In this document: positions 10,045 through 54,562 of the stretch, in pieces
Layout: each line of letters begins with the position of its first letter
How positions within the stretch are numbered: position 1 is the stretch's first letter
Origin: an uncultured bacterium
GTDB lineage: Bacteria; Bipolaricaulota; Bipolaricaulia; UBA7950; UBA9294
Assembly (NCBI GenBank): GCA_903857865.1
Contig: CAIOGO010000018.1
Span: 23,588-87,587, forward strand
DNA length: 64,000 bases
Direction: 5' to 3'
Notes under the pieces: generated by a model
The model's input: the letters and a program-made list of their open reading frames with translations, nothing else
What the model was told of the DNA's origin: nothing
The model's database searches: none
Program-made: the position numbers and the translations under genes

Positions 10045-10119
10045 CTACTTCTTGTCCGAAGGCTTGCTTGGCTTCTTTACTGGTGCTGCAGGAGTCTTCT
10101 TACCGCATCCACAACCCAT
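10045..10119 (-). CDS. Candidate 24-aa peptide MGCGCGKKTPAAPVKKPSKPSDKK (Cys-Gly N-terminus, Lys/Pro-rich tail)
   Basis: ATG preceded by AAGGGGG at about 9 nt. Codon usage is A/T-ending (aag, aca, cca, gta), atypical for this genome. It is the tail of track ORF 10045..10257. Confidence 0.25.
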   Translation of the reverse strand: MGCGCGKKTPAAPVKKPSKPSDKK

Positions 10120-10468: not shown

Positions 10469-10495
10469 GAGGCCCGCGTCCGAGGACGCGGGGCC
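10469..10495 (-). terminator. Intrinsic terminator (GC hairpin plus U-tract on the minus strand) for the MacB-type ABC operon
   Basis: Stem GCCCGCGTCC/GGACGCGGGC. On the minus strand it is followed by CUCUUUUCG. Lies about 160 nt downstream of the FtsX-like permease stop. Confidence 0.5.
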
Positions 10496-10548
10496 TCCGG
10501 AGGGAAGAGTCTCCCGGAGTTTCAGCTACTCCGCAGCCCAGCGCCGTC

Positions 10549-10663
10549 AGCTGCGGAGCCCGTCACTCCGCAGCCCCCGCCGTCAAGCCGCCGAGCGGAA
10601 TCCTCCTGCTGACATCACTCGGCGGCCCTACGCCGTCAGCTGCGGAGCCCGTCACTCCGCAGC
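10549..10663. repeat. Two copies of a REP-like palindromic unit (GCTGCGGAG-ccgtcac-CTCCGCAGC) at about 10549-10573 and 10639-10663
   Basis: A 33-nt direct repeat, each copy forming a perfect 9-bp stem hairpin. The second copy overlaps the stop codon of the permease gene. Confidence 0.6.
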
Positions 10664-40300: not shown

Positions 40301-42046
40301 GTGACGAAGAATCATGTACCGCGCTGGATCTGGCCGTGCGCTCCCGCTGCGCGCGTTGCGATGGTGCTCGCCTTGGTGGTCTTCCTCGGCGCGTGTTCCG
40401 CCCCTCCGCAGCCGATGTCATCTTGGGTCCCGCCCTCGCTCGCCGACGTCCAGGCTGAGCTTCATGGCGCCTCGTTCGACGGCTTCGTGACATCGTCCTG
40501 TCGGCTCTACCTCCTTCGTTTCCCTCAAGTCGTTGCGCAGCTCGGTGTGGCCGAGACCCTGGGGATCCGAAACGATCGGCTCAATGACTACTCCGTGGCC
40601 TACGACCGCGAGACGGCCGCCATCGAGGGCTACTTCCTCGATCGGCTCCAGTCGTTCGATCGGGAGGCCCTTGCGCCCGCGCAGCGTGCAGCCTACGACA
40701 CCTGCCAGTGGATGTGGACGCGCAGCGCGGCACGCCGTGCGCTCGGGTTTTCGGGATACGCAGTGGACTCGACGATGGCCTCACCCGACGTCCGATTGTC
40801 CCGCCTCTTCACGACCGACCTGCCCTTAGGCGATGAGTCGGATCTTGCCGACTACCTGGCGTGCCTCCGGCAGGCTACGGCTCAGATCCGGGAGATCGAG
40901 CTGCACGTCGATGCCGAGGATAAGCGCGGGATCGTGCCGCCGGATGGGGTTCTGGCGGCGGAACTCGCGATGCTGTCTCTCGTGAGGATTCGTCACACAG
41001 ACTCTCGCGACCAAATTGGCCTGTTTCAGAAGATCAGTGGGACCTCTCACCCGTTCTACCTGAGGATGCGGGACTTGGCTTCCAGCATGCCCGCCTTGCC
41101 GCGTGAGAAGCGGAGCGAGATCATGGTTGCGGCTCGCGAGGAGATCGAGCAAAGGATCATCCCGGCATTCGAACGGCTGTACAACACCGTGGCGCACCGC
41201 CTGTCCGAGATTCCGACAGACGCTGTGGGGATCGGTCCCCTGTTCGGCGCGGATGCAGCGTACGCCGAGCTCCTGCGCCAGGCTTCGGGCACGCTCCTTC
41301 GCTCCGACGACGTGCATCGACTGGCTCAGGCGCATGTCGAACGCGCACGCCTGGACATCGACAAGGTCAGCACGTCCCTGGGTATCCGCGCCGGGACGCC
41401 GCTCGCGTCGCTCTTCCTGTACCTGCAGAGCGAGGACGGTGAGCCCGACGCCGAGTCCGATGGCGAGCCCGACGTGGCCGACGTCCCGGCGCCGACGCGC
41501 GGATTCCCGATGTCGCGCGCGCAGCCGACGATTCTTCCGTTTGGCGTGGGGGTTGACGACGGGGATGGCGTGCCGTGGGGTCTGGCCGCCTCCGACCCGT
41601 TCTATGGGTTCATGGCGGGCTGCAAGCTCTACCTGGCGCAGGTGGCCTGGGAGGAGCGACAGGCTGGCATGGGATCCGCACGGAGTGCGCTTGCGGCGCT
41701 TCTGGAGCAGTATCAGGCTGCGGTGGCTGCCGTAGTCGATACAGGCATTCACGCGCTGGGATGGGGTCTGCGCACTGCGACCACATACTATCAAGATACC
41801 CTAGGTCTGGCCCCGTTCGAGGCTCGCTACGAGGTTTCGCGCCTCGCGGCGGCGCCCGGGCTGGCGGCAGGCCGATACGCCGCGTACTGCCGGATCGTGG
41901 AACTGCGAGCGAGAGCGCAGGAAGCGGCGGGCGACGAGTACCTGCCGGAGCGATTCCATGACTGGCTGCTCGAGTACGGAGCGAGGCCCCTAGAGACCCT
42001 GGATGACCCGACGCCAGGAGACCTGAGAAACGCGGCCGGCTCCTGA
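40301..42046 (+). CDS. DUF885-family lipoprotein (intact paralog of the upstream pseudogene)
   Basis: Signal peptide plus lipobox (LVVFLGACS). Full-length 581 aa with the DUF885 C-terminal region (…VDTGIHALGW…). Confidence 0.8.
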   Translation: MTKNHVPRWIWPCAPAARVAMVLALVVFLGACSAPPQPMSSWVPPSLADVQAELHGASFDGFVTSSCRLYLLRFPQVVAQLGVAETLGIRNDRLNDYSVAYDRETAAIEGYFLDRLQSFDREALAPAQRAAYDTCQWMWTRSAARRALGFSGYAVDSTMASPDVRLSRLFTTDLPLGDESDLADYLACLRQATAQIREIELHVDAEDKRGIVPPDGVLAAELAMLSLVRIRHTDSRDQIGLFQKISGTSHPFYLRMRDLASSMPALPREKRSEIMVAAREEIEQRIIPAFERLYNTVAHRLSEIPTDAVGIGPLFGADAAYAELLRQASGTLLRSDDVHRLAQAHVERARLDIDKVSTSLGIRAGTPLASLFLYLQSEDGEPDAESDGEPDVADVPAPTRGFPMSRAQPTILPFGVGVDDGDGVPWGLAASDPFYGFMAGCKLYLAQVAWEERQAGMGSARSALAALLEQYQAAVAAVVDTGIHALGWGLRTATTYYQDTLGLAPFEARYEVSRLAAAPGLAAGRYAAYCRIVELRARAQEAAGDEYLPERFHDWLLEYGARPLETLDDPTPGDLRNAAGS

Positions 42047-42056
42047 GCCGCCGTTT

Positions 42057-42788
42057 CTAGCGTTGCGCGTCGACGTGCTTCCGCCAGAGAGCCAGCGCGT
42101 GCGCACGTGGGTCGACGACCTCGACGCCCGCCTCGGCGAAGAACGCGTTCGTGTTGACGAGGTCGCGCACGAGGAGTTCGAGCGCGTCGTCGTTGTACCG
42201 CGGATCCACGGCCTGCGGGAAGTCGATGATCGTGACCGCTCCCTTCCAGAAGAGCATGTTGTAGGGTGACAGGTCCGCGTGGACGCGGTGATGGACGAGG
42301 AAGAGGTCCACGTTCTCGAGGATTCGTGCGTAGATGCGGCGGGCCTCCTCTAGGTCCAACGGGACGCCGACGAGGACGGGCGCCGGGGTCTCGATGTCGC
42401 CGAGGTACTCCATCAGGATGACCGGCCCAACGCGCTCGATGGGGTATGGGACATCCGCGCCGGCCGCGTGGAGCATCTCGAGTGTCTTCATCTCGTGGCT
42501 GATCCAGGCGCTGAACTTGTGCGTCCGCCCGTGCTGCGTCTTCTTCCCGAGGGCGCGGAGGACGCGGGCGTCGGGACGAGCGCCGCGGGATCGGCCCTGC
42601 TGATAGATGGCGTCCCGCTTGAAGCTTCTCATCTCCAGCGGGCGATAGACCTTAGCCGCGATGAGGTCCCGATCGAGCGATGGGTGCGCGTGGCAGCAGT
42701 AGACCACGGCCTCTTTGCCACTCTTGATCGGTCGGATCACGTCGAGGAGCAGATGCTCCTCGATCAACGGAGCGAGGTGTTGGAGCAA
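42057..42788 (-). CDS. RIO-type atypical serine protein kinase (RIO1/Kdo-kinase-like)
   Basis: …SGKEAVVYCC…AAKVYRP… (ATP-binding Lys), catalytic loop VHADLSPYNML, metal-binding IDFPQAV. The only available in-frame start is TTG. Confidence 0.75.
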   Translation of the reverse strand: MLQHLAPLIEEHLLLDVIRPIKSGKEAVVYCCHAHPSLDRDLIAAKVYRPLEMRSFKRDAIYQQGRSRGARPDARVLRALGKKTQHGRTHKFSAWISHEMKTLEMLHAAGADVPYPIERVGPVILMEYLGDIETPAPVLVGVPLDLEEARRIYARILENVDLFLVHHRVHADLSPYNMLFWKGAVTIIDFPQAVDPRYNDDALELLVRDLVNTNAFFAEAGVEVVDPRAHALALWRKHVDAQR

Positions 42789-43045
42789 CTCCTCCTCGAC
42801 CGTCTTCTCTTCCGGTTGCGCGGGTTTTGGCGGCGCGTTCTTGCGCGGCGGGCGACGATCGGGCTCGACGTCCTCGTAGAAGCGAATGAGACCTCCCTGC
42901 GACGCGTGCCGGAATCGAGAGCGAGTGTTCGTTTGCCAGCGTCAGAGCCGGAGTATACCCGCGGCGAGCGTGAGCGAGCGGACGGCGGCCGCCGGGGATG
43001 GATCCGCGGGAGAGTCGCGTGCATACTTGCACACATCTGCAAGAG

Positions 43046-43351
43046 ATGGAAAGGAGCAACGTGCTCGTCACGAGTCGCGTCGTGAAAATCGGCAAGGCCT
43101 TGGCTCACCCGGCCCGCGTGCGGATTCTGGTCATGCTCAAGGAAGGGGAGCTCTGCGGCTGCGAATTCACTCCGAGTCTGTGTCTTGACCCTTCGGTCGT
43201 CTCGCGCCATCTCTCGACTCTCGCGCAGGCCGGCCTCATCGAGTCGCGCCGTGACGGTGCTCGCGTGATGTGGAGTCTGTGCGACCCCGCGGTCATCGGC
43301 CACCTTGAGCGCCTCGCGGCGCTTACGCAGGAGAAGGAGGCGGTGCGGTGA
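43046..43351 (+). CDS. ArsR/SmtB-family metalloregulator
   Basis: HTH (ALAHPARVRILVMLKEGELCGCEFTPSL…VSRHLSTLAQAGLIE) with Cys pairs (CGCEF). A 4-nt overlap with the downstream permease. Confidence 0.8.
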   Translation: MERSNVLVTSRVVKIGKALAHPARVRILVMLKEGELCGCEFTPSLCLDPSVVSRHLSTLAQAGLIESRRDGARVMWSLCDPAVIGHLERLAALTQEKEAVR

Positions 43352-44460
43352 AACGAGGACGAGGAGCGCCCACGGCGGTTCCGAAAGAGCCGCCTCCAGC
43401 GCCTACGGGTCCTGGCTTTACCTCTTTGTCGCGGCGGGAGCGCCTCGCGCTGCGCCTGACCCTCGTGCTCTCCGGAGCGGCGGCGTGGTGGCTTGCGTAT
43501 ACGAACCTCGAGGCGTTCGCCACGTGGTTCACCTACCATCTGCTGGGGATGACGGCGGGGACCCCCCTGGCCTCGGCTGTTGCCTTCCTGGTCTACGAGG
43601 CCCCCAAGGTCCTCATGCTCCTGGCCTTGGTCGTGTTCGGCGTCGGGATCCTCCGCACATTCTTCACCCCGGAGCGGACTCGTCGCCTCCTCGCCGGCAA
43701 GCGCGAGGTGCTGGGCAACGTGCTGGCCTCCCTGCTCGGCGTGGTAACGCCGTTCTGCTCCTGCTCCGCCGTGCCGCTCTTCATTGGCTTCGTCAGCACT
43801 GGGGTCCCGCTCGGGGTGACGTTCTCGTTCCTCATCGCGGCGCCGATGATCAACGAGGTCGCCCTCGTTCTGCTGTTCGGCCTGTTCGGGTGGAAGGTGG
43901 CAGCGCTGTACATGGGAACGGGTCTGGTGATTGCCATGGTGTCGGGCTGGATTGTCGGGCGCCTGAAGCTTGAGCGGTGGGTCGAGGACTGGGTCCACCA
44001 AACATCGGCGGGCAACGGGCACGCCGCTGACGAAGGTCCGCTGACCTGGAGCGATCGCGCACGACTCGGCCGGCACGCCGTGAAGGACATCGTCGGGAAG
44101 GTGTGGCCCTACGTGCTGGTCGGCATCGCTGTCGGGGCAGGCATCCACAGCTACGTCCCGGAGAACTTCATGGCCTCCATCATGGGCAAGGGAGCGTGGT
44201 GGTCCGTTCCTCTCGCCGTGGTGATCGGCATTCCGATGTATTCCAACGCGGCCGGTATCATCCCCGTGGTGCAAGCGCTCCTCAGCAAGGGGGCGGCGCT
44301 CGGCACGGTGCTCGCGTTCATGATGTCGGTCATCGGGCTGTCGCTGCCGGAAATGATCATCCTGCGCAAGGTTCTCAAGGTTCCGCTCATTGTGACCTTC
44401 GCGAGCGTCGTAGGCGCCGGGATCGTGGTCGTGGGCTACCTGTTCAATGCTGTCCTATGA
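43348..44460 (+). CDS. arsP: COG0701/DUF318 permease with the TPFCSCS motif (ArsP-type organoarsenical efflux permease)
   Basis: Conserved motif VVTPFCSCSAVPLF. Two-repeat TM topology. 370 aa. Confidence 0.75.
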   Translation: MKRGRGAPTAVPKEPPPAPTGPGFTSLSRRERLALRLTLVLSGAAAWWLAYTNLEAFATWFTYHLLGMTAGTPLASAVAFLVYEAPKVLMLLALVVFGVGILRTFFTPERTRRLLAGKREVLGNVLASLLGVVTPFCSCSAVPLFIGFVSTGVPLGVTFSFLIAAPMINEVALVLLFGLFGWKVAALYMGTGLVIAMVSGWIVGRLKLERWVEDWVHQTSAGNGHAADEGPLTWSDRARLGRHAVKDIVGKVWPYVLVGIAVGAGIHSYVPENFMASIMGKGAWWSVPLAVVIGIPMYSNAAGIIPVVQALLSKGAALGTVLAFMMSVIGLSLPEMIILRKVLKVPLIVTFASVVGAGIVVVGYLFNAVL

Positions 44461-44595
44461 CCAGCGGCGGGCGAAGACCGGGTGCAGAGAAACGCAACCC
44501 GGTGCGAGCGGGGAGTCCGCAAGGGACCATGGAGGGGAAAGATAGTGGATACCTGATCTGCGCCACCACTCGAACCAGCGGAAGAGGGAGGGCCA

Positions 44596-44826
44596 GTGCG
44601 AATCGAGGTGCTAGGAACGGGGTGCCCGAAGTGCAAGGCAACGATGGCCAACGCGCAGAAGGCGGTGGCAGAGCTGGGCATCCGGGCGGAGGTTGTCAAG
44701 GTCGAGGATCTCATGGAGATTGTGTCGCGCGGCGTGATGATGACACCCGCGCTTGTGGTTGAGGGGCAGATCAAAGTTGTCGGGAGGACGCCGACGGTGG
44801 ACGAGATCAAGAAGTGGCTCCTGTAG
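44596..44826 (+). CDS. Small thioredoxin-fold protein (redox-active disulfide protein 2 family), the usual partner of COG0701 permeases
   Basis: 76 aa. N-terminal CPKC (GTGCPKCKAT). TIGR00412-like pattern. Confidence 0.75.
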   Translation: MRIEVLGTGCPKCKATMANAQKAVAELGIRAEVVKVEDLMEIVSRGVMMTPALVVEGQIKVVGRTPTVDEIKKWLL

Positions 44827-44921
44827 ACGGGCAACGCGCGATGCACTCGACGACGACGAGGCACGCGTGAGGTCGGATGTGCAATGCTGCCCGAGGTAGA
44901 CCGAAACACGGAGGGGATAGG

Positions 44922-45518
44922 GTGGACAACAAGGTATTGCTGATCATCGTTTTCGCGCTCTTCGCTGTCGCTGCCGCGCTCGTCGTCTTTGCACCGGGAG
45001 AGCAGGAAGCGCAGACTGCGAGTAGGGCGTCAGTGCCATCCCAGACTGAGGGAGCAGCGTCCACGACGGCTGTCTCCGCGTCGCCAGACGTGCAAACGAC
45101 GCTCGCGTCGGGAGTAGACCTGGCCGGGGAGTCGCAGACGGCAAGCAACGTCGCCTCCGCGAGCTCGACGCCGGCGAGCCATCGCTTTGTTGCGACCTAC
45201 TTCCACAACACCGCGAGGTGCGTGACCTGCCGCAGTATTGAGCAACGTTCCAGAGATACGATCCAAACCGCCTTCGCCGCCGAGATCGTGTCCGGCCGAT
45301 TGGCGTGGCGTGCCCTTAACATGGAGGAAAAGGAAAACGAGCACTACGCCATCGACTACGACCTGCCGTATGCATCGCTCGTCCTCGCTGAAATGGACGG
45401 GGAACGCGAAGTGCGCTTCAAGGTGCTGGAGCAGACGTGGGACCTCGTCCACAAGAGGCAGCCGCTGTTGGAGGACTACGTTGAGAATGAGACGCGCGCT
45501 TTTCTAGAGGGACGCTAG
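44922..45518 (+). CDS. Membrane-anchored thioredoxin-like CxxC protein (ArsF-family-like, which is my recollection of the NCBI family name)
   Basis: GTG start with SD GGAGGGGA. N-terminal TM, Ser/Thr/Ala linker, then a domain with FHNTARCVTCRS (CxxC). Confidence 0.55.
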   Translation: MDNKVLLIIVFALFAVAAALVVFAPGEQEAQTASRASVPSQTEGAASTTAVSASPDVQTTLASGVDLAGESQTASNVASASSTPASHRFVATYFHNTARCVTCRSIEQRSRDTIQTAFAAEIVSGRLAWRALNMEEKENEHYAIDYDLPYASLVLAEMDGEREVRFKVLEQTWDLVHKRQPLLEDYVENETRAFLEGR

Positions 45519-46210
45519 TGCCTGATTGGGTTCTTGGTGCAGCTTCCGCGTTCTGGTTCGGGATTCTGACCTCAATCAGCCCTTGCCCACTCGCGACGAA
45601 CATTACGGCGATGTCCTTCGTCGGACGCCGCGTCGGGAGTCCAGGCAAGGTTCTGCTCGCCGGCGTTCTGTACACGGTGGGACGTGCGCTCACCTACCTG
45701 GTTCTGGGTGCTCTTCTCGTTGGGAGCCTCCTTTCCGCCCCGCGGTTGTCCCTTGTGTTGCAGAGGACGATGAACAAGGCTCTCGGCCCGATCCTCATCG
45801 TGGTTGGGGTCTTGCTGCTCGGCGTGATCCCTCTTCGCTTGCCGTCGTCCGGACTCACCCAGCGTATGGGAGAGCGGATCGCGAAATGGGGACCGTTCGG
45901 CGCGCTCTTGCTGGGAGTCCTCTTCGCCCTCACCTTCTGTCCGGTGTCGGCTGCCTTCTTCTTTGGCAGCCTTCTCCCGTTGGCAATTGAACAGCAGTCG
46001 CCCGTGTTGTTGCCGGCCCTGTTTGGGATCGGTACCGCGATCCCGGTTCTCGGGTTCGCGGTGGCGATCGCTCTGGGTGCCAAGTCGCTCGGCAAGGTTT
46101 TCGGCAAGGTCACGAAGATCGAGCGGTGGGCCAGGCTCATCACCGGGGTGGTGTTCATTGGCGTGGGCATCTATCTGATGCTGGTGCACGTGTTCCGGCT
46201 ATGGGCATAG
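45518..46210 (+). CDS. CcdA/DsbD-like thiol-disulfide transporter membrane protein (ArsG-family-like, which is my recollection of the NCBI family name)
   Basis: Six TM. Conserved Cys in TM1 (SISPCPL) and TM4 (LTFCPV), typical of CcdA/DsbD beta-domain proteins. Start overlaps the upstream stop. Confidence 0.7.
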   Translation: MPDWVLGAASAFWFGILTSISPCPLATNITAMSFVGRRVGSPGKVLLAGVLYTVGRALTYLVLGALLVGSLLSAPRLSLVLQRTMNKALGPILIVVGVLLLGVIPLRLPSSGLTQRMGERIAKWGPFGALLLGVLFALTFCPVSAAFFFGSLLPLAIEQQSPVLLPALFGIGTAIPVLGFAVAIALGAKSLGKVFGKVTKIERWARLITGVVFIGVGIYLMLVHVFRLWA

Positions 46211-46308
46211 AGAGAGGAACGCCCCAACATGCCGGGACCAATGCACAGTTGGTGTGCCGGAGGTCGAGAAGAGGTGCAACAAAGCGCGCAGCGGCTGTGG
46301 GAGAGGAC

Positions 46309-47121
46309 ATGAAGCGCGGGCTCGCAGTGCTCGGCATTATCTGTATTTCGCTCGAAGTCCTTCTCGTCGCGGGATGCACCCGTCTTGACAGCGTCGAAGC
46401 GGTGCTGGACGCGTCCCCCAGCGAAGGCGCCGCTCCTTTACGCGTCGAGTTCCGCATGGACCGTTCAACGTATGGGAGCGGCGGCCCCGGCACGTTCGTC
46501 CTTGACTTCGGCGATGGGACGAACGGCGTAGCGGGCGACGACCTCGGCCTGCTGATCCCGCATGTGTATGGGCCCATCGGAACGTATCAGGCGCGTCTCA
46601 CGGTGATCGCCAACGATGGGCAGACAAACGAGGCGACAGCGGCCATTGCCGCGACCACCGGCGAGGTGCCCGAAGGATCGACGGTGGGGAGGAGAGCCTA
46701 CAATTTCACAGCGCCGACGACGGACGGGCGCGAGATCACGCTGAGCGAACTGCGCGGTCAAGTCGTTCTCATCGAGTTCTGGGGTTCGTGGTGCATACCG
46801 TGCAAGGCGAGCATGCCTCACATCAACGCCTTCTGGGAGGCGTATCACGATCACGGGTTTGTGGTTCTTGCGGTCAGCACAGACGACAGGGCTGAAGACG
46901 CCGTCCAATACCTCGCGAAGAATGGTTTCACTGGGCTGACCTGCATTTGGGAGTCGGGTGGGAAGTCGACGCGAATCAAGCTGATGTATGCAGTCGATTG
47001 GATTCCCCGCTCGATCGTCGTCGACAAGGCCGGGATTGTCCGCTACAACGGGCATCCCATGGATTTAGAGGGGAGCTTCCTGGAAACCCTGCTGGCCGAG
47101 CCGGCTTCCGAACCCCCCTAG
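46309..47121 (+). CDS. Lipoprotein with an N-terminal PKD domain and a C-terminal TlpA/ResA-like thioredoxin domain
   Basis: Lipobox LLVAGCT. PKD (LDFGDGTNG…GTYQARLTVIANDGQ). Redoxin (EFWGSWCIPCK). Confidence 0.75.
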   Translation: MKRGLAVLGIICISLEVLLVAGCTRLDSVEAVLDASPSEGAAPLRVEFRMDRSTYGSGGPGTFVLDFGDGTNGVAGDDLGLLIPHVYGPIGTYQARLTVIANDGQTNEATAAIAATTGEVPEGSTVGRRAYNFTAPTTDGREITLSELRGQVVLIEFWGSWCIPCKASMPHINAFWEAYHDHGFVVLAVSTDDRAEDAVQYLAKNGFTGLTCIWESGGKSTRIKLMYAVDWIPRSIVVDKAGIVRYNGHPMDLEGSFLETLLAEPASEPP

Positions 47122-47385
47122 TGGCACCGAAGCCAACGGCTCTGCGGAGTAGAAGCAGCAGAAGGCGGCGAGGGAACAGCCATGAGGCCCAGAAGTGCCC
47201 CATCGGAGAACGTGCACGCGCGGAGGATACGCGACGGCGCCCCCCGCCCCCTCCCGCGCGCTGGGGGAAGTCCAGTCCGTAGGTCGCCGATCCAGCGGGC
47301 GCCGCAGCCACCCAAAGAAGAGCGGCCCCCAGCTGGAGTGCACTCCAAACGAGCTCCGGGTGTCCCTGCGACCGTCAGAGCCCCA

Positions 47386-47802
47386 TCATTGAAGGGGCGA
47401 TGAGCAGGCGGGTCCCAATGCGCAAGCGGCGACCGCGTTTCGTAGGGCCAACTCCTGCGGCCTGCCCTCACCGACAATTGCTTTGTCGCAAACCAGAATG
47501 ACAGGCACATCGATGGGTGACTGCAGACGGTAGCGGATCGCAAGCTTCTGAAGCAGGCTCTGCCCCGTGGAGCTCTTGAAGTCATAGTAGCGCACTGTAA
47601 GGCCGGGGGACTCGTCAAGAAGCGTTTCAAGAACTTCCTTCATTCGGGTGCAATGGCTGCAGTCCTCCATGTAGAAGAAAACGACTGCCGATCTCTCCGA
47701 TGTGCCAGGAGCCGTGCATCCCGCGAGGACAAGGACGAGTAGGGCGGCCAGACAGCAGCCCTGTAGTTCGCGCGCTCGGCGCACTCCCTGCGATGTGTTC
47801 AT
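47386..47802 (-). CDS. Thioredoxin/glutaredoxin-like lipoprotein (CSHC)
   Basis: Start re-called at MNTSQG… with RBS GAGAGGAG. Lipobox LVLAGCT. FFYMEDCSHCTRMK redox motif. The longer track ORF N-terminus is spurious. Confidence 0.65.
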   Translation of the reverse strand: MNTSQGVRRARELQGCCLAALLVLVLAGCTAPGTSERSAVVFFYMEDCSHCTRMKEVLETLLDESPGLTVRYYDFKSSTGQSLLQKLAIRYRLQSPIDVPVILVCDKAIVGEGRPQELALRNAVAACALGPACSSPLQ

Positions 47803-48031
47803 GAGGTCTCCTCTCGGCAGGCCCAGAAGCTGGTCTGCATCAGCGCCGGCAGCCGCACCGCCCCGTCGGCCCGCACACATCCTGTGGGGCGGCGCCGCGT
47901 CGTCGGCGCGGCACGCGGGCGAAGCAACATGGGTCCTGGGGCGTGCAAGACGGGGGCGGGGGTACGTGGAGGTTGCCATGGGGGCTGATTGTGGTACTAT
48001 TCGCGCGAACATGCAAATAGACGATGAGAAG

Positions 48032-48448
48032 ATGGGGACAGACTATGTGGCGTTGGCCGCGGCTCTTGGCGCGCTGGGGGAGCCAACTCGTCTACGGCTC
48101 TTGGCCTTGTTGATGACCTTCAACGAGCCGCTGTGCGTCTGCGAGCTGTCCTCCGGCCTTGGCCTTCCCGACTATCAGACGTCGCGGCACCTCGCTGCCT
48201 TGAGGCGCGCTGGTCTCGTTGCCTACAGCCGTCAAGGTCTCTGGGCCTATTACCGTCCAACCGACAACCCTCACGTTCGATTCCTGCGCAACGTCCTTTG
48301 CACAGATTCGGAGGACGTGGCGCGCATGCAGTCTAGGTTGCAGCAACGAGTTGCAGGTCGCTGCGTCGTCGGTCCGGCTTGTGCGGCGGCTGAGAAAGAG
48401 CGGGGGCAGATAAGTCCGCTTGCCGCAACGTGCGGATCGAGGAAGTGA
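48032..48448 (+). CDS. arsR: ArsR-family arsenic-responsive repressor (type 1 site, LCVCEL)
   Basis: HTH with the As(III)-binding motif EPLCVCELS (compare ELCVCDL), plus a Cys-rich C-terminal tail. An alternative start is at 48011. Confidence 0.8.
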   Translation: MGTDYVALAAALGALGEPTRLRLLALLMTFNEPLCVCELSSGLGLPDYQTSRHLAALRRAGLVAYSRQGLWAYYRPTDNPHVRFLRNVLCTDSEDVARMQSRLQQRVAGRCVVGPACAAAEKERGQISPLAATCGSRK

Positions 48449-48558
48449 TCGAAGAGAAGAACAAGGTGTCCGAGGACAGGAATCAAGGCCAGCGGCCTTC
48501 CTGAGGAACTGCGCTGGCCATCGCCTGATCGACGGCGAGACGTAAGAGGTGATGAGCA

Positions 48559-49572
48559 ATGCATGGTTTCGAGAAATACTTGCCAATATGGGTTGTCGTG
48601 TGTATGGGACTTGGCCTCCTCCTCTCCCAGACCGTGCCTGGGGTGGGTGAGACGATCGGTTCGTGGGAAGTGGGCGGCGTGTCGATTCCGATCGGAATCT
48701 GCCTCTTCCTGATGATGTACCCGGCGATGCTCAACCTGCAGGTCGCGGAGCTGCGGAAGCTGCGCAGGAACCCGAAGCCGATTCTTCTGACACTCTTCTC
48801 GAACTGGATCTTTGCTCCTCTCGTGCATGTGGGCCTGGCAACCCTCTTCCTTCGCGGAAACCCGCAGCTCATGGTCGCGGTCATCTTGCTCGGATCCAGC
48901 CCGTGCACGGCCATGGTGCTCGTGTGGGGAAAACTTGCGGGAGGCAACCAGGAGCAGAACGTCGTCAACACAAGCCTGAACACGATTGCGATCGTCTTCC
49001 TCTACGTGCCGGTAGTGTCGCTCTTGACGGGAATGCAGAACATTCCCATCGATCGGGTGATGCTCCTCATTTCCGGCGCGGTATTCATTGGTGCGCCCCT
49101 CGTGATCGGCATCGTGAGCAAACGCCTGCTCACCCGCGCCAAGGGTCTCGAATGGTTCGATCGAGTCTACCGCCCCTTTGTCGGCAAGGTGACGATCGTT
49201 GCCTTGCTTGTGACGCTCATCGTTCTGTTTGCGCTGAACGGTGATGTGCTGCTCCATCACTTCGACAAGCTCTTGCTCGTATCGATCCCGCTCCTGCTTG
49301 CCTTCCCGGTCGTCCTGGGATTCAACCTGCTCGCCACGCGCGTGCTCAAGTTCCGCTATCGCGAGGCGATTGTCTCAGTGCTCATCGGGTCGTCGAGCCA
49401 CTTTGAGATCGCGATTGCTTCGGCCATTGGCATGTATGGAGTGGGTTCGCTCGCCGCGCTCGGAACGACGATGGGTCTGTTCTGGGAGGTGCCCGTCATG
49501 CTCAGCGTTGTCTACATAGGGCGAGCCTTGGGGCGCCGGGGATTCTGGGGGGACCCAGTCGCTGCGAAGTAG
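48559..49572 (+). CDS. acr3: ACR3-family arsenite efflux transporter
   Basis: 10-TM BART-superfamily pattern. Conserved Cys in LGSSPCTAMV (Acr3 catalytic Cys region). 337 aa. Confidence 0.85.
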   Translation: MHGFEKYLPIWVVVCMGLGLLLSQTVPGVGETIGSWEVGGVSIPIGICLFLMMYPAMLNLQVAELRKLRRNPKPILLTLFSNWIFAPLVHVGLATLFLRGNPQLMVAVILLGSSPCTAMVLVWGKLAGGNQEQNVVNTSLNTIAIVFLYVPVVSLLTGMQNIPIDRVMLLISGAVFIGAPLVIGIVSKRLLTRAKGLEWFDRVYRPFVGKVTIVALLVTLIVLFALNGDVLLHHFDKLLLVSIPLLLAFPVVLGFNLLATRVLKFRYREAIVSVLIGSSSHFEIAIASAIGMYGVGSLAALGTTMGLFWEVPVMLSVVYIGRALGRRGFWGDPVAAK

Positions 49573-49830
49573 AGAGGGCTCGCATGTTCCGCCCTTGCGA
49601 TCAGGAACTTGGCGAGGCCGTGCCTGCCCAAGCGCTTTCGGGGCACGTCCGACGTCGGCGCGACAGTGAAGGAACTCGCCTGCATCATGGCGCTCACGTT
49701 CCGCGAGAGCGCCGGTGGCGGCGATGGCTGGCCCGGGCACGCTCGGCGACGTGAAGGAACTCATGGCCGGGAACCTTCGCTGCTGCCCGCGGTAAGATAC
49801 GTCGATGAGACGTGGATGAAAAGGAGAACC

Positions 49831-50892
49831 ATGAGACGAACCTTTGCTCTTCTCGCGCTGTCGCTTGTGTGGATGGGTGGGACGGCCGCCGCCGCTCCGC
49901 AGATCGCCGTGGACCTGCAGACGTACAACTACCCGGACACGGTCGAAGGGATCGCCGTGGTCCACACGTTCGTCCTGTCGAACGTCGGCGACCAGGAGCT
50001 TGTGATCACGGATGTGACGGTCGGCTGCCACTGCACAACGACCCAGTTGGCGACCGACCGCCTTCAGCCGGGGCAGAGCGTCGAGCTTCGTGCGGTGCTT
50101 GACACCAATGGGTTCTCCGGCCGCGTCGCGCGATATATCACGGTGGCATCGAACGACCCGGCCCATCCCACGATCCAGCTCAACCTGGCGGGCAACGTCG
50201 TCGATCGGCAGCCGTACCAGAAGCCGGTGAGCGATCTGTTCAACGAAGCGTATCTGCTCGTCGACGTTCGCGACGCGACGGCGTACGCCGCTGGGCACCT
50301 CCTCGGCGCTATGAGCATCCCGGCGAGCGAGGCTGCGTCTCGAGCGGCCGGCCTTCCTCCGAGCGCGTTGATCGTGATCTACGATCAGAACGGCTCAACG
50401 TCGACGTTGACGGCCGTGTCCCAAGCGTTCCACGGCGGCGGGCTGGCCAGCGTCTATGCGCTGCGCGGCGGGCTTGACTTGTGGCAGAAGACCTACAAAG
50501 CATCGTTTGTCGTCGCGGGCGGGACCGGCACGTGGGGCGCGTTTGTCGATGTGTCCGGCGCGCGCGCCTACTCCACCGGAACGCTGCAGAACTTCGATAT
50601 CAGCCAGCTCAAGAGTTGGTACTGTGTCCTCATCGACCTGCGTTCGCCGTCTGCGTACGCTGCCGGGCACCTGGCGGGAGCCGTCAACGTGGATGAGTCC
50701 GGTGTAGCCGCGTTCCTCGGCACTCTTCCGAGCGATATCGACGTCATCCTCTACAGCGACGACGGATCGGCGAGCGACCGCATCGTCTACGGGATGTGGC
50801 AGCGCGGAAGCCGCGCGCAGAGTCTGCTTGGCGGGCTGGCCGAGTGGCAGAAGCAGTACGGCAACTTCCTTATTGTGTCGTCAGCTGGGTAG
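49831..50892 (+). CDS. Secreted DUF1573-domain protein fused to two rhodanese-like domains, both lacking the catalytic Cys
   Basis: Start re-called at MRRTFALLALS with SD AAAAGGAG. DUF1573 (…VHTFVLSNVGDQELVITDVTVGCHCTT…). Two rhodanese folds whose active-site positions read YDQNGST and YSDDGSA, with no Cys. Confidence 0.7.
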   Translation: MRRTFALLALSLVWMGGTAAAAPQIAVDLQTYNYPDTVEGIAVVHTFVLSNVGDQELVITDVTVGCHCTTTQLATDRLQPGQSVELRAVLDTNGFSGRVARYITVASNDPAHPTIQLNLAGNVVDRQPYQKPVSDLFNEAYLLVDVRDATAYAAGHLLGAMSIPASEAASRAAGLPPSALIVIYDQNGSTSTLTAVSQAFHGGGLASVYALRGGLDLWQKTYKASFVVAGGTGTWGAFVDVSGARAYSTGTLQNFDISQLKSWYCVLIDLRSPSAYAAGHLAGAVNVDESGVAAFLGTLPSDIDVILYSDDGSASDRIVYGMWQRGSRAQSLLGGLAEWQKQYGNFLIVSSAG

Positions 50893-50989
50893 GCGACGAC
50901 ACACCGTTGCACTCGGCCAGCTAATCGAGGCGATCTTCTCGCTCTGGCCGCTTGGCGCGGCCGGAGGCGTCTGCGCCGTTCTGTCCCTC

Positions 50990-52126
50990 CTACGGGGCCA
51001 GGACGGCGTGGGCCTTCCTGAGCCACGCGATGATCTCGATCCCTTGAGGGCAGGCGGACTCGCAGGCGCCGCACGCGACGCACCGATCGGCGCGATGCTC
51101 GGGCTTCATGAATCGCGCGTAGCCGACGCGCGACCGCGGTAGATCGTCGTACGCCGTCGCGTCGTTGTAGAGCGCAAACACGTGCGGGATGTCCACGCCT
51201 TGAGGACATGGTTGACAGTAGCGGCAGTTCGTACAGGGGATCGGGGCCAGAGTACGGTACGCGTCGCGGACGCGCTCGACGAGGCGGAGGTCGGCCTCGC
51301 GGAGGGATCCGATTCCCGAACGGTCGGCGCTCGCGAGGTTCTCCTCCACCTGCTCCATCGTCGACATCCCGGACAGGGCGAGTGACACGGCGGGGTCGCT
51401 CCACACCCATTGGAGTGCCCAATCGGCCTGCGAGCGCTTCGTCGGCGCGGAGTCCCACAGCTTGGCGACCTGGCGCGGCGCGGGGCGCGCCAGGGACCCG
51501 CCTCGCAGGGGTTCCATCACGATGACGGCGAGGCCTCGGGCGGCCGCGTAGCGGAGTCCCTCGCGTCCGGCCTGGAAGTCGGCGTCCACGAAGTTGTACT
51601 GGATTTGGCAGAGGCCCCAATCGTGGGCGTCGACGATCCCGCGGAAGGTCTCGACGTCGTCGTGGAACGAGAAACCGAACTGCCCGATTCGGCCGTCCCG
51701 TCGTACCCGCTCGGCCCACTCTCGCACCCCGAGGTCGCGCAACTTGGGCCAGCGCTCCTTGTCGAGAGCATGGAGGAGGTAGAAGTCGATCGTCTCGGTC
51801 TCGAGGCGGCGGAGTTGTTCGTCGAGGAAGCGGTCGAAGTCGTCGGGCGTCTCGACGAGCCACGAAGGCATCTTCGTCGCGAGGCGAGTGCGCTCGCGAT
51901 AGCCGTCTCGGAGGCAACGGCCGAGGAACCGCTCCGACTGCTCGCTGTGGTACGGCCACGCGGTGTCGACGTAGTTCACGCCGTGATCGATGGCCGCCCG
52001 AACCATGCGCGTCGCCAGATCTTCGTCGATCTTGCCATGGTCGCCGTCGATCGTCGGTAGGCGCATCGCCCCGAATCCGAGCGCCGAGGGCCGCCAGTCG
52101 AGCCGTCCGAATGAGCGGTACTGCAT
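50990..52126 (-). CDS. Aldo/keto reductase fused to a C-terminal 2x[4Fe-4S] ferredoxin-like domain
   Basis: AKR N-terminus (FGAMRLP…DTAWPY…) and C-terminal CTNCRYCQPCPQGV…CVACGACESACPQGI. Confidence 0.8.
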   Translation of the reverse strand: MQYRSFGRLDWRPSALGFGAMRLPTIDGDHGKIDEDLATRMVRAAIDHGVNYVDTAWPYHSEQSERFLGRCLRDGYRERTRLATKMPSWLVETPDDFDRFLDEQLRRLETETIDFYLLHALDKERWPKLRDLGVREWAERVRRDGRIGQFGFSFHDDVETFRGIVDAHDWGLCQIQYNFVDADFQAGREGLRYAAARGLAVIVMEPLRGGSLARPAPRQVAKLWDSAPTKRSQADWALQWVWSDPAVSLALSGMSTMEQVEENLASADRSGIGSLREADLRLVERVRDAYRTLAPIPCTNCRYCQPCPQGVDIPHVFALYNDATAYDDLPRSRVGYARFMKPEHRADRCVACGACESACPQGIEIIAWLRKAHAVLAP

Positions 52127-52232
52127 GGTCCGCTACCTCCCGGCGCATGGTCGGCGAACGCTGGGTCGCGATCAAGAGATGCGCCCCGGACAGGGCCGGG
52201 GCGCTCAACAGGGACCGTCCTGAAAATGGACT

Positions 52233-53186
52233 CTACAGCGGTCTCACGGGCTCGCAGATGTCGACGATCCACTTCTTCTGCGGGTGCGTGCCGCCGTCGT
52301 TCAGGTAAATCTCGTAGCACAGCCGGTCGTCCGGCTGGTAGCCGGTCTTCGGCATCCACTCGCCGATCAGCTTGTCCCACGCCTCGCCGAACTGGGTCAC
52401 GTCGATCTCGACGTGCGCCACGGCGAACAGGCCGCCGGGGATCTTCATCGTTCCGATCTCACCGTCGACCTTCGTTCCTGGCGGCACGGTCAGGCACGCG
52501 TCGGAGCGAAGCTTTAACGGGTCGGTGACCTCAGGGCTGTCGTGATAGACGGCCAGCGACTTCGTCTCCGGGAATCGCACGAGCCCGCGCGGCCCGGCCC
52601 ACTTGAACACGCGGTCGAAGGCCTCTCCGACTTTGTTGTACGCGCCGATGTGCCGCGCGTAGACGACGTTCCACTCCGGCATCTGTTTCACTTCCACGCT
52701 GAACTTCATCATCGTCCTCCTGGTGTCCGAGATGCCCGGAGTGTAGGGAGGCGGCGGGGTGAAGTCTTTCCCCTCCTTGCTTTCCGTTTGTCCGTTCTTG
52801 CTTTCGACTTGTCGGATCTTGCGTGCGGCGTCGCGCCCGCCGCGCCGGAACTTGGACGCGCTCGTCCCGAACGCTACACGGAACTCGCGAGCGAATGCTG
52901 ACGGAGACGAGTACCCACATTGCACCGCAATCTCGGTGATGGACTCCCTCGGGTTGTTGAGGAGGCGGGTCGCCGCCGTGGTGGCGCGGACGCGGCGGAT
53001 GAAGTCGTTCAGCGTCTCGCCGATGACGGCTCTAAACACGCGATGGAAGTGGAATGGCGAGAAGCTCGCGATCCGTGCCAGCGTCTCGAGGCGGAGATCG
53101 CCGGCCAGGTTGGCATGGACGTAGTCCATGACGCGGTTGACGCGCCCGACGTACTCCCGCCGTCGCAACTCCTCTTGGTCAATCAA
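52233..53186 (-). CDS. AraC-family transcriptional regulator with a GyrI-like effector-binding domain
   Basis: AraC HTH (…ESITEIAVQCGYSSPSAFAREFRVAFG…) plus a C-terminal GyrI-like domain (…YEIYLND…). Confidence 0.8.
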   Translation of the reverse strand: MIDQEELRRREYVGRVNRVMDYVHANLAGDLRLETLARIASFSPFHFHRVFRAVIGETLNDFIRRVRATTAATRLLNNPRESITEIAVQCGYSSPSAFAREFRVAFGTSASKFRRGGRDAARKIRQVESKNGQTESKEGKDFTPPPPYTPGISDTRRTMMKFSVEVKQMPEWNVVYARHIGAYNKVGEAFDRVFKWAGPRGLVRFPETKSLAVYHDSPEVTDPLKLRSDACLTVPPGTKVDGEIGTMKIPGGLFAVAHVEIDVTQFGEAWDKLIGEWMPKTGYQPDDRLCYEIYLNDGGTHPQKKWIVDICEPVRPL

Positions 53187-53195
53187 GGAGCTCTC

Positions 53196-53561
53196 CTACG
53201 TTCGACTCCACAAGCCGAGGCGATTGCCGACGTTGTCGAGGAAGAGGGCGAAGTACCCGAACTCGTCCGAGATCTTCGTCTTCCGGACAAGCGCGCGGCC
53301 GTCCATCCGCTCGATTCTTCCGAGCGCCGCGTCGATGTCGTCGACCTCGATGTAAAGAATCGGCCCCTTGTCGGACGGCGCGTCGGCGCGCGGCCCAGCA
53401 TCGAATCCCCCTTCCTGTCCGTCCGGCGTGGTGAACCTCGCGTAGGTGTCCCACCCTGGGGTGATCTTGAATTCCCAGCGGAAGATCTCTTCGTAGAAGC
53501 GTCGAGATGCCGCGAGGTCTCTCGTGTGGAGTTCGATGTGCGTGATGCCGCCGTGGCTCAT
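53196..53561 (-). CDS. VOC-family (glyoxalase/bleomycin-resistance fold) protein
   Basis: 121 aa. THIELHTRDLAASRRFYEEIF… and C-terminal …DEFGYFALFLDNVGNRLGLW. Confidence 0.75.
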   Translation of the reverse strand: MSHGGITHIELHTRDLAASRRFYEEIFRWEFKITPGWDTYARFTTPDGQEGGFDAGPRADAPSDKGPILYIEVDDIDAALGRIERMDGRALVRKTKISDEFGYFALFLDNVGNRLGLWSRT

Positions 53562-53715: not shown

Positions 53716-54417
53716 CTACAACGCGAAGAGGTGGCCCTGGCCGTTCACCCGGTTCCACTCCGTGATTCCGCCCGTGAGGTTGAGGACGTTCGTGAGCCCC
53801 GCCTCGACGAGGATCGTGGCCGCCTGGGCGCTCCTCCCACCCACGAGGCAGTACAGAATGATCGGGACCTCGCGTGGAAGTCGAGGCAACCAGCTATCCA
53901 GGTTCTGCTGGAACTCCAAGAGCGGGATGTTCATCGCGCCGAAGAGGTGGCCGGTCGCGTACTCCTCCGCCGTGCGCACGTCGATCAGGAAGTAGAAGAC
54001 GAGCTTCAGGTCGCCGACCGAGATCTCCTGGATGACCGGGGCCGTCGACTCGGCGATCGTGACGACGATCTGAAAGACGGCGGTCGGATTGATGGGGTCA
54101 TTGGAGGTGACGCTCACGGTCCGAGTCACCGTTCCCCGGAACCCTGTCGTGTTCACCGTTGCCTGGAGGTCGACCGACTCCTCGGGCGCGAGCTCCCGCT
54201 TGGCCAACGCCGCCGTCGTGCATCCGCACGACGTGAACACGTCCGTGATCGTCAGCGTCTCGTCGCCAGCGTTCCTCAGCACGAACGTATGAGTGACGAG
54301 CGAGTTCGACTGTAGGGTGACGGAGTAGACAGGATTGTCCACGCTGATCATCGGCGCGGCGACGGCCGCGACTCCGAATAGCCCGCATGCCACAAGCAGA
54401 ACGACGAACCTCTTCAT
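53716..54417 (-). CDS. Secreted DUF1573-domain protein fused to a single rhodanese domain with an intact active-site Cys
   Basis: Start re-called at MKRFVVLLVACGLFG. DUF1573 (…THTFVLRNAGDETLTITDVFTSCGCTT…). Rhodanese active-site loop ILYCLVGGRS. Confidence 0.75.
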   Translation of the reverse strand: MKRFVVLLVACGLFGVAAVAAPMISVDNPVYSVTLQSNSLVTHTFVLRNAGDETLTITDVFTSCGCTTAALAKRELAPEESVDLQATVNTTGFRGTVTRTVSVTSNDPINPTAVFQIVVTIAESTAPVIQEISVGDLKLVFYFLIDVRTAEEYATGHLFGAMNIPLLEFQQNLDSWLPRLPREVPIILYCLVGGRSAQAATILVEAGLTNVLNLTGGITEWNRVNGQGHLFAL

Positions 54418-54562
54418 CGAAGACCTCCGTTGCACTTCCATCCGTCCGTCCTTGGACGAGGTACGTACCCGCATGGGAGGCATTAGTGTACTCCGAGGCC
54501 CGATTTACGCACGCTCGGGACGGAAGGGCCGGTCTCGGACTTGCCTGGCAAGCGAGTGGTCG

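Follow-up and report, generated by a model that had tools for sequence, protein, structure and literature searches.

We analyzed a stretch of 64,000 nucleotides (hereafter, the window; G+C content, 65%) on contig CAIOGO010000018.1 of an uncultured Bipolaricaulota bacterium (assembly GCA_903857865.1). Positions 42998-50892 hold ten genes that an earlier note had described as a composite arsenic and thiol-redox island with two ArsR regulators. We lean, if only slightly, toward reading this locus as a mosaic, ArsR-controlled metalloid-resistance island in which arsenical export by ACR3 and a permease would be combined with a reductant relay leading from ArsE to ArsG, then to ArsF and a TlpA-like lipoprotein, and finally to the CxC motif of a DUF1573 protein. 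The recurrent pairing of such DUF1573(CxC)-pseudo-rhodanese proteins and additional exported CxxC proteins with ArsG/CcdA-type proteins is a new element, previously undescribed. More tentatively, as a possibility that we would not call likely, we propose that a DUF1573(CxC)-pseudo-rhodanese, a CcdA-type protein (ArsG or a Grx-CcdA fusion), and an anchored Trx/Grx-like CxxC protein may constitute an undescribed ArsR-regulated extracytoplasmic thiol-redox module, which would protect or repair envelope dithiols under arsenical or soft-metalloid stress. This would imply that ArsEFG is primarily a transmembrane reductant relay and not a nitroreductase plus a permease.

Organization of the island

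The ten genes were recognized from open reading frame (ORF) listings, the coordinates of a public gene caller, Pfam, and NCBIfam, with identities assigned by the curated NCBIfam cut-offs together with Pfam families (Table 1). All of them, as well as a paralogue located downstream, carry the motifs that the earlier note had named, at or near the positions it had given. Its coordinates were broadly right, but some starts had to be corrected, as the ORFs opening at 42998, 44877, and 49609 are over-long. The long ORFs from 42998, 44877, 47702 or 47978, and 49609 were rejected as marking the true starts, and those preceded by a ribosome-binding site (RBS) or consistent with relatives were preferred. 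The comparisons described below establish which genes these are, their motifs, folds, and export signals, and also the synteny and the mosaic origin of the island. Proteins of the window are found identically in several metagenome assemblies, and the closest named relatives are metagenome-assembled genomes (MAGs) of Candidatus Bipolaricaulota.

Every protein of the island except ACR3 has one conserved cysteine pair. The genes arsR1, CxC permease, arsE, arsF, arsG, and tlpA form one plus-strand run with start/stop overlaps (Unit 1). Given these overlaps (arsR1/permease and arsF/arsG) and the short gaps, the arrangement fits two putative operons, one spanning arsR1 to tlpA and another that begins with arsR2 and includes at least the ACR3 gene.

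Table 1. Positions of the features of the island and of the downstream paralogue in the window
Feature	Position	Strand	Basis or remark
Candidate ArsR1 operator, TTGCA-N6-TGCAA	43027-43042	.	Inverted repeat just 5' of the arsR1 RBS
arsR1, ArsR/SmtB metalloregulator, 96 aa, ELCGCEF	43061-43351	+	Longest ORF from 42998
ArsP_1-family permease, 370 aa, TPFCSCS	43348-44460	+	PF03773
arsE, MTH895/ArsE-type thioredoxin-like protein, 76 aa, CPKC	44596-44826	+	TIGR00412, Thioredoxin_3
Remnant of AhpD-like CMD gene, 21 codons	44834-44896	+	tblastn
arsF, membrane-anchored CxxC protein, YFHNTARCVTC	44922-45518	+	NF040494
arsG, DsbD_2/CcdA-like membrane protein, 230 aa	45518-46210	+	NF040495, PF13386
PKD + TlpA/ResA-like redoxin lipoprotein, 270 aa, LVAGC, WCIPC	46309-47121	+	Pfam
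Grx/Trx-like lipoprotein, 138 aa, VLAGC, CSHC, C-terminal CX5C	47386-47802	-	Homology
Sigma-70-like promoter, TTGCCA-16-TACTAT with TG extension	47973-48000	+	Consensus match only
arsR2, ArsR/SmtB repressor, LCVCEL	48011-48448	+	Gene caller start, 47978
Divergent ACR3-family arsenite efflux transporter, 337 aa	48559-49572	+	TIGR00832, SBF
Frameshifted remnant of second AhpD-like CMD gene	49579-49792	+	tblastn
Secreted DUF1573 protein with two catalytically dead rhodanese domains, 353 aa	49831-50892	+	Pfam
Paralogue, secreted DUF1573 (SCGCT) with single rhodanese, CLVGGRS	53716-54417	-	Pfam, alignment

ArsE, ArsF, ArsG, and the exported CxxC proteins

The earlier note held that the central genes resemble arsEFG; the link was right but too weakly put, since all three proteins pass the family models and the core cassette is widespread and annotated in RefSeq. 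More specifically, ArsE scores 109.5 against a cut-off of 62 with TIGR00412 (the MTH895/ArsE family) and 98 bits with Thioredoxin_3; ArsF scores 82.5 against 60 with NF040494 ("nitrophenyl compound nitroreductase subunit ArsF"); and ArsG scores 284.5 against 200 with the equivalog model NF040495 ("aromatic aminobenzylarsenical efflux permease ArsG") and 61 bits with PF13386 (DsbD_2). By these scores, the thioredoxin-like, anchored CxxC, and CcdA-like genes of the window are assigned to the ArsE, ArsF, and ArsG families, as represented by the cassette of Shewanella putrefaciens 200. The gene set and its adjacency, the ArsF/ArsG start-stop overlap (TAGTG), the ArsR gene, and the CxC permease gene are the same as in RefSeq entries of Fulvitalea and Prevotella. 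The window differs in that it adds the PKD-TlpA lipoprotein directly after arsG, the Grx-like lipoprotein, and the DUF1573-pseudo-rhodanese, and has lost the AhpD-like CMD gene still present in most of its relatives from Bipolaricaulota.

ArsE has no signal peptide and is predicted to be cytoplasmic; its CxxC (CPKC) is invariant in 47/47 homologues, and its closest solved structure by sequence is MTH895 (PDB 1ILO; E = 2.5e-16). ArsF is composed of an N-terminal membrane anchor, a Ser/Thr/Ala-rich linker, and a C-terminal thioredoxin-fold CxxC domain, which was modeled by AlphaFold with a pLDDT of 84-98 and for which all of the top 50 Foldseek PDB matches are thioredoxin-fold proteins. Since the ArsF homologues of Bacteroidota begin with cleavable signal peptides or lipoboxes, this domain is presumably extracytoplasmic. 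The arsF gene lies just upstream of arsG in all related loci. ArsG contains only two cysteines, C23 (SPCP), which was found in each of 49 homologues, and C141 (FCP), found in all but one of them. Such a cysteine pair is the hallmark of CcdA/DsbD membrane electron conduits, and ArsG aligns along its length with a canonical CcdA of the DsbD_TM type (29% identity over 219 aa), to which it is homologous. Taken as sequence features, these properties fit a thiol-reductant relay better than they fit the published assignment of a nitroreductase and a permease.

Two further lipoproteins of the island carry CxxC motifs. The one encoded after arsG has the exported redoxin fold and the WCxxC motif (WCIPC, behind the lipobox LVAGC), with Pfam matches to PKD_4, AhpC-TSA, Redoxin, and Thioredoxin_8. 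We class it as TlpA-like and not as a TlpA or ResA orthologue because it does not reach either equivalog cut-off (75.8 against 170 for ResA and 57.3 against 230 for TlpA). Its CxxC is kept in 7/7 homologues. A third cysteine, C212 (FTGLTCIWESG), is likewise invariant in these seven. The second, minus-strand lipoprotein (CSHC) gave weak Trx/Grx matches only in Pfam and NCBIfam. Homology links it to a secreted CPDC protein of 160 aa (E = 2.5e-14) and also to a Grx-CcdA fusion, in the N-terminal domain of the latter (E = 3.6e-6). Its CxxC is kept in all 39 homologues.

Recurrence of the cassette and its partner genes

A scan with the ArsF alignment, using one genome per GTDB species, yielded 39 loci, which were compared with the window proteins by tblastn. 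This analysis uncovered ArsE-ArsF-ArsG together with the CxC permease, and usually ArsR as well, in Bipolaricaulota, a "delta proteobacterium" MAG, Acidobacteriota, Bacteroidota (mostly Prolixibacteraceae), and Gammaproteobacteria. The set of ArsE, ArsF, ArsG, permease, and ArsR is kept as a unit in ~40 loci from at least five phyla. An ACR3 gene lies within 10 kb in 13/39 genome loci, which represent 12 distinct places, as L012 and L007 are the same contig. The cassette of L013 encloses a bona fide ACR3 gene (458 bits). An ArsC of the low-molecular-weight (LMW) phosphatase type is found near nine Bacteroidota loci. In RefSeq, Prevotella nigrescens F0103 has the order wHTH-ArsF-ArsG-thioredoxin-permease-ArsC-ACR3 beside an integrase, and plasmid pFA1 of Fulvitalea axinellae has ArsR-thioredoxin-ArsF-ArsG-permease. 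The core cassette is therefore widespread, already annotated (including on RefSeq plasmids), known, and ordinary.

The synteny comparison that the earlier note had asked for in related genomes showed the same genes together in dozens of independent loci, which is not chance, and the additional components it had pointed to (PKD-TlpA, CSHC lipoprotein, and DUF1573-rhodanese) are conserved together with ArsF/ArsG among the relatives from Bipolaricaulota. The DUF1573-rhodanese gene follows ArsG in L004, L006, L007 (twice), L009, L010, L017, L051, L053, L060, L097, and L112. The order is ArsG-DUF1573-rhodanese in L004 (no ACR3), L051, and L017, and ArsG-TlpA-DUF1573-rhodanese in L006 and L009 (no ACR3 in either). 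L007 has two ArsF-ArsG-DUF1573-rhodanese triplets, the second of which continues as TlpA-ArsR-ACR3-DUF1573-rhodanese. The PKD-TlpA gene stands directly after ArsG in L006, L007, and L009, and in L010 it is placed farther downstream, behind a short DUF1573-rhodanese gene and a Trx-like gene. Since both TlpA and DUF1573-rhodanese genes occur repeatedly downstream of ArsG, they are not random neighbours of it.

The L007/L012 contig (GCA_026390345.1, Candidatus Bipolaricaulota) carries at 900-12000 an uninterrupted, larger form of the island, with the order ArsR-permease-DGC-Trx-CcdA(DsbD_TM)-ArsE-CMD-ArsF-ArsG-DUF1573-rhodanese(short), followed by ArsF-ArsG-TlpA-ArsR-ACR3-DUF1573-rhodanese(long).

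A second scan, of metagenomes with the DUF1573-rhodanese family alignment, gave 80 loci, 29 of them informative, with 1.5 kb or more of sequence on either flank. A CcdA-type gene (ArsG or DsbD_TM) is present within 3 kb in 19 of the 29, and a CcdA-type or Trx-like gene in 21. We found a recurrent unannotated module in L052, L066, L070, L071, L125, L126, and others, in which a DUF1573-double pseudo-rhodanese gene is followed by one for a 375-aa fusion of a Grx-like domain with DsbD_TM and then by one for the 160-aa secreted CPDC protein, which has a C-terminal membrane anchor and a second CX4-5C pair. Several DUF1573-rhodanese/CcdA modules also contain ArsE, CMD, the CxC permease, or a CVC-type ArsR. 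The modules of L061, L065, L088-L092, L098, and L099 have no ACR3 match on the available sequence.

These data bear on the published ArsEFG model, according to which ArsE and ArsF reduce the nitro group of trivalent roxarsone or nitarsone and ArsG exports the resulting aminophenyl arsenicals. The permease and ACR3 would add efflux of MAs(III) and As(III), and TlpA, the CSHC lipoprotein, and the DUF1573-rhodanese would be unrelated neighbours. We regard this as the most serious of the alternatives, though an unlikely one. The NCBIfam names agree with it and all three proteins score above the respective cut-offs; RefSeq annotates homologous cassettes in the same way, and ArsG is listed among the organoarsenical efflux transporters and ArsE/ArsF among the organoarsenical resistance proteins (PMC9144182). 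However, ArsF is a bare thioredoxin fold that lacks any domain for flavin or NAD(P)H, its Bacteroidota homologues are exported, and a cytoplasmic ArsE would place the two "subunits" on opposite sides of the membrane. In addition, ArsG keeps exactly two CcdA-type cysteines and is interchangeable with canonical CcdA beside DUF1573-rhodanese genes, and the repeated presence of TlpA and DUF1573-rhodanese after ArsG does not suit unrelated neighbours. Finally, the cassette is common in environmental MAGs, and contact with synthetic nitro-aromatic arsenicals is not something that we would expect there. The two views may be reconcilable if thiol-driven nitro reduction were a side activity of the relay.

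The DUF1573-pseudo-rhodanese family

The last gene of the island has an RBS (AAAGGAG) ahead of its ATG and encodes a protein with a signal peptide (ending in ...AAAA|PQ), followed by DUF1573 and two rhodanese domains in Pfam. The DUF1573 domain is clear in this long form and in the downstream paralogue (PF07610, 62.8 and 68.5 bits, respectively, against a cut-off of 26.1), and the NCBIfam OS_HP2 domain model stays below its cut-off of 100 in both (66.7 and 57.3). Both proteins have N-terminal signal peptides. The two rhodanese loops of the long form (YDQNGS and YSDDGS) lack the catalytic cysteine. The same is true of either loop in 31/31 aligned long forms, with domain 1 almost always reading Y-D and domain 2 Y-S/D, and in these 31 the CxC(T) of DUF1573 (C66/C68/T69) is invariant. 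Among ~78 family members, only the paralogue (CLVGGRS) and two metagenome homologues (L106 and L108) keep the catalytic cysteine, the paralogue loop being C-X4-R, i.e., of the sulfurtransferase type. We rejected the proposal that these rhodaneses serve as Acr2/Cdc25-type arsenate reductases, a fold relationship to which the earlier note had drawn attention: the long form has no catalytic cysteine, the paralogue has C-X4-R and not HC(X)5R, and both are secreted.

AlphaFold modeled the DUF1573-double rhodanese with a pLDDT of 92.4 and a pTM of 0.85, and PDB matches cover single domains only, namely a PapD/HYDIN-like Ig domain (including 2QSV, a Porphyromonas gingivalis protein of unknown function) and the rhodanese. 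The Ig-like domain with a C-G/H-C motif and the rhodanese fold are thus shared with DUF1573/OS_HP2 (seleno)proteins, PspE, and GlpE, whereas the three-domain architecture of the window family has no solved counterpart and its catalytic cysteine is replaced by Asp or Ser. The family is small: a 90%-identity cluster database contains at least 207 homologues, and of 1.84 billion representatives at 50% identity only 73 reach E <= 1e-30. DUF1573 selenoprotein forms carry UGC at the CxC motif (PMC9312934, PMC13188914). This, together with the invariance of the motif, argues for a redox-active CxC.

In the window, the paralogue (minus strand, region 53716-57157) lies directly downstream, on the same strand, of a P2-type cation ATPase gene (Cation_ATPase_N/C). 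The gene that comes after the DUF1573-rhodanese gene of L004 encodes a heavy-metal (HMBD) P-type ATPase.

Rhodanese domains raise the question of sulfur (persulfide, polysulfide, or thiosulfate) or selenium handling, in which ArsR-family sensors would respond to sulfane sulfur, rhodanese-type proteins would carry sulfur outside the cell, and a CcdA relay would recycle them. We consider this improbable. SoxV/SoxW/SoxS offers a precedent for a CcdA-type relay that serves a sulfur carrier, and the paralogue has a sulfurtransferase-type loop, but the cysteine is missing from every aligned long form and from ~75/78 family members, so these proteins cannot carry a persulfide on the rhodanese loop. 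Likewise, weak NCBIfam similarities were obtained to BigR, TsoR, the rhodanese/DsbD fusion selenoprotein TsoB, and rhodanese-related selenoproteins, yet every sulfur-related match falls far below its cut-off. The existence of DUF1573 selenoprotein forms also speaks for this alternative; against it, ArsR2 has the classical CVC As(III) site (12/12 homologues), and ACR3 and ArsC repeatedly accompany the core cassette.

Mosaic origin of the island

That the island is composite turned out to be literally true, as DNA comparison with near-identical contigs revealed a mosaic. L053 is collinear with the window at 40456-44811 (92% identity) and 49590-53212 (89%), and in place of the intervening 4.8 kb (44812-49589) it has a 1.4-kb arsF'-arsG'-CMD segment. 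L054 passes straight from the end of tlpA (window 46928-47107) to 49658-51814, which identifies the block of CSHC lipoprotein, arsR2, and ACR3 (47108-49657) as an insertion (Unit 2). Outside the replaced or inserted segments, both contigs are 86-92% identical to the window. Since the G+C content of the inserted 4.8 kb is 61.8%, versus 65.5% in the flanks, lateral acquisition of arsF-arsG-tlpA-(CSHC)-arsR2-ACR3 is suggested.

Given that ArsR2-ACR3 is inserted and that loci without ACR3 have ArsG followed by DUF1573-rhodanese, the DUF1573-rhodanese gene belongs with the relay, and the genes that ancestrally preceded it are those of ArsG/TlpA and not ACR3. The earlier note had rightly placed this gene in the island but had not linked it to the ArsG/CcdA-type genes in particular.

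Two remnants of AhpD-like CMD genes were detected by tblastn. The first (Table 1) matches the C-terminus of a 106-aa CMD protein with 57% identity, and relatives keep an intact CMD gene between arsE and arsF. The second matches CMD residues 35-85 and 90-106 in two frames, and L053 has an intact CMD gene at this site, i.e., before the DUF1573-rhodanese gene. The ORFs at 49609-50892 (427 aa) and 44877-45518 (213 aa) are over-extended, and their extra N-terminal codons are relics of these genes; the 427-aa ORF arises because the second remnant is in frame with the DUF1573-rhodanese gene downstream. Two AhpD-like gene copies were lost, and the ArsR2-ACR3 unit was inserted into an older thiol-redox locus. 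For the window, the outcome is a corrected annotation and a clear history.

Transporters and regulators

The permease matches PF03773 with 250.6 bits and has the vicinal cysteine pair in a transmembrane segment (TPFCSCS) that characterizes ArsP; both cysteines (C137 and C139) are invariant in 30/30 homologues. In the Pfam family and the membrane-embedded pair it is like ArsP of Campylobacter jejuni, which exports methylarsenite and roxarsone(III). The nearest NCBIfam models are SaoE (135 against a cut-off of 325) and SO_0444 (93 against 300), both unreached. Two arsP clades with probably different functions have been distinguished (PMC6205960). From its sequence, the permease is likely an exporter of a thiophilic trivalent arsenical.

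ACR3 aligns with positions 3-326 of the 327 of TIGR00832 (E = 5.9e-82) and matches SBF with 140 bits. The cysteine of its PCTAMV motif (C116) is invariant in 12/12 homologues, and the EVPVML motif is present; in ACR3 proteins, the cysteine of (R/P)C(T/I)AMV and the glutamate of ExPVML are functionally essential. The protein is 92% identical to the ACR3 of Bipolaricaulota MAG L007. Compared with the usual ArsR-ACR3 arsenite efflux unit, the window is alike in having an LCVCEL ArsR followed by an ACR3 with the conserved cysteine and glutamate motifs. It differs in that its ACR3 belongs to a divergent clade (32% identical to that of Prevotella), that the unit lacks an ArsC of the LMW-phosphatase type, and that it is set within an older thiol-redox locus.

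Both regulators exceed the NF033788 cut-off of 55 (ArsR1, 76 bits; ArsR2, 73.8 bits), and ArsR1 also matches HTH_5. The likely start of arsR1 is the GTG at 43061, which is preceded by the RBS AAGGAG and gives a protein of 96 aa, the same length as in relatives; the end of the gene overlaps the permease start by 4 nt. The cysteine motif of ArsR1 reads LCGCEF versus LCVCEL in ArsR2, with the first cysteine kept in 36/37 homologues and the second in 18/37. In ArsR2, C53 and C55 are invariant in 12/12 homologues, some of which are encoded next to DUF1573-rhodanese and CcdA modules with no ACR3 match on the available sequence. With an ArsR/SmtB winged helix-turn-helix and a CVC in the DNA-binding region, ArsR2 is of the R773 type and is predicted to respond to As(III).

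A perfect TTGCA-N6-TGCAA repeat occurs once in the window, where 0.02 chance matches are expected, and is also found ~35-65 bp upstream of the arsR1 homologues in L007, L011, L014, and L053. It is therefore a candidate ArsR1 operator, conserved in five independent loci. An operator shared by both ArsR genes was rejected, as the repeat lies upstream of arsR1 only; repeats around arsR2 are GC-rich and not obviously operator-like. A sigma-70-like site is the sole promoter-like match in 42700-51100, with 1.1 expected by chance, i.e., no excess. Because it falls inside the called ArsR2 N-terminus, it suggests that arsR2 may start at the ATG at 48011 and have a near-leaderless mRNA. The 110-bp gap between arsR2 and ACR3 includes a 16-nt imperfect inverted repeat at 48487-48519 (GGCCAGCGGCCTTCCT / AGGAACTGCGCTGGCC), which could be an operator, an attenuator, or nothing.

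The transporters and regulators also bear on a broader envelope defence against soft metals (Hg, Cu, Cd, or Zn), in which the CxC permease would export the metal, exported CxxC/CxC proteins would buffer or repair metal-damaged thiols as Scs-type proteins do for copper, and ACR3 would be an unrelated insertion. This alternative strikes us as marginally less probable still than sulfur or selenium handling. PF03773 includes the Cu/Zn exporter SO_0444 and SaoE of the organometallic SAO system (PMC13188914), and ArsR1 combines weak CmtR similarity with a variable second cysteine, but the SaoE, SO_0444, and CmtR scores are all well below the cut-offs. The insertion of ArsR2-ACR3 is demonstrable and a DUF1573-rhodanese gene precedes the HMBD ATPase gene in L004; across phyla, however, ArsC and ACR3 are the recurring neighbours, and no metallochaperone or HMA domains were found by Pfam in the window island. 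A wider soft-metal role is possible, especially for ArsR1 and the permease.

A proposed envelope-thiol relay

In the mechanism that we propose, the direction of electron flow, the substrates, and the inducers are what we infer from protein families, motifs, and gene order. Trivalent arsenicals would release ArsR1 and ArsR2 from their operators through the CxC sites, as expected from family knowledge. ACR3 would then export As(III), and the TPFCSCS permease, again judging from its family, a thiophilic and possibly organic arsenical. Cytoplasmic ArsE would donate electrons to ArsG, acting as a CcdA-like two-cysteine membrane conduit, and ArsG would in turn reduce the exported thioredoxin-fold proteins ArsF, TlpA, and the CSHC lipoprotein. 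Through the latter three, the CxC of the DUF1573-pseudo-rhodanese, and probably other envelope dithiols as well, would be maintained in a reduced state or cleared of bound arsenicals.

The proposed relay resembles the known CcdA/DsbD relays (Trx to CcdA to ResA/TlpA/CcmG; SoxV-SoxW-SoxS; ScsABCD) in having a two-cysteine membrane protein of the DsbD superfamily, adjoining genes for exported or lipid-anchored thioredoxin-fold CxxC proteins, and a cytoplasmic Trx-like donor. In contrast to them, ArsG is of the DsbD_2 and not the DsbD_TM type, and the genetic context is ArsR/ACR3 instead of cytochrome, Sox, or copper genes. Moreover, the electrons are presumed to end up on a DUF1573 protein whose CxC domain is fused to dead rhodaneses.

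Several points weigh against this proposal. The organism is uncultured, and the relay is read from sequence comparison and predicted structure; the orientation of the ArsF anchor in Bipolaricaulota, in particular, is taken from the Bacteroidota homologues. PF03773 comprises Cu/Zn and organometal exporters as well, and the assignment of the permease rests on its family and cysteine motif. ACR3 misses the TIGR00832 cut-off by 7 bits (275.6 against 282.8). The window contains no LMW-phosphatase ArsC at E <= 1e-3 (Grx-type ArsC was not searched), which leaves As(V) handling unexplained. In 8/29 informative metagenome loci, the DUF1573-rhodanese gene has no CcdA-type or Trx-like neighbour. L050, from the same genome as L004 (GCA_040960625.1), is a second DUF1573-double-rhodanese copy with no CcdA-type gene nearby, located between lgt/lnt (lipoprotein maturation) and ABC/LptC-like genes. 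Lastly, the sole functional study, by Chen, Zhang, and Rosen in 2019, reportedly ascribed nitro reduction of aromatic arsenicals to ArsE/ArsF and efflux, not electron relay, to ArsG, as the NCBIfam names also indicate.

A role of the CcdA-like and CxxC proteins in cytochrome c maturation, which the earlier note had raised itself, or in general disulfide isomerization in the envelope, with a merely accidental position near ars genes, is very improbable: the Pfam title of DsbD_2 is "cytochrome c biogenesis protein transmembrane region" and TlpA/ResA-like redoxins serve cytochrome maturation in other bacteria, yet none of the ~53 predicted window proteins contains CxxCH, no Pfam family of the ResB/ResC type (cytochrome c synthase) appears in the precomputed gene annotations of related loci, ArsG exceeds the cut-off of its own equivalog model, and the ArsE-ArsF-ArsG-permease-ArsR unit travels with ACR3 and ArsC, with ars genes as its neighbours in all ~40 loci.

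The annotations of the core cassette in several phyla trace to a single functional study. If a CcdA-type reductant relay is what these genes encode, the names "nitroreductase subunit" and "efflux permease" mislead, and arsenic resistance would include an unstudied arm for the protection of envelope thiols. The DUF1573-pseudo-rhodanese family would be a candidate client protein of this arm, and one that is readily approached by genetics, as it swaps ArsG for canonical CcdA as a partner.

Genes downstream of the island

Between the island and the paralogue, the minus strand (50990-53561) encodes an aldo/keto reductase with a C-terminal 4Fe-4S dicluster domain, an AraC-GyrI-like regulator, and a VOC/glyoxalase protein. 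The last (53196-53561) was considered as an ArsI C-As lyase and rejected because the protein is cysteine-free. The aldo/keto reductase and the AraC-GyrI-like regulator are collinear with L053 and hence belong to the older genomic backbone.

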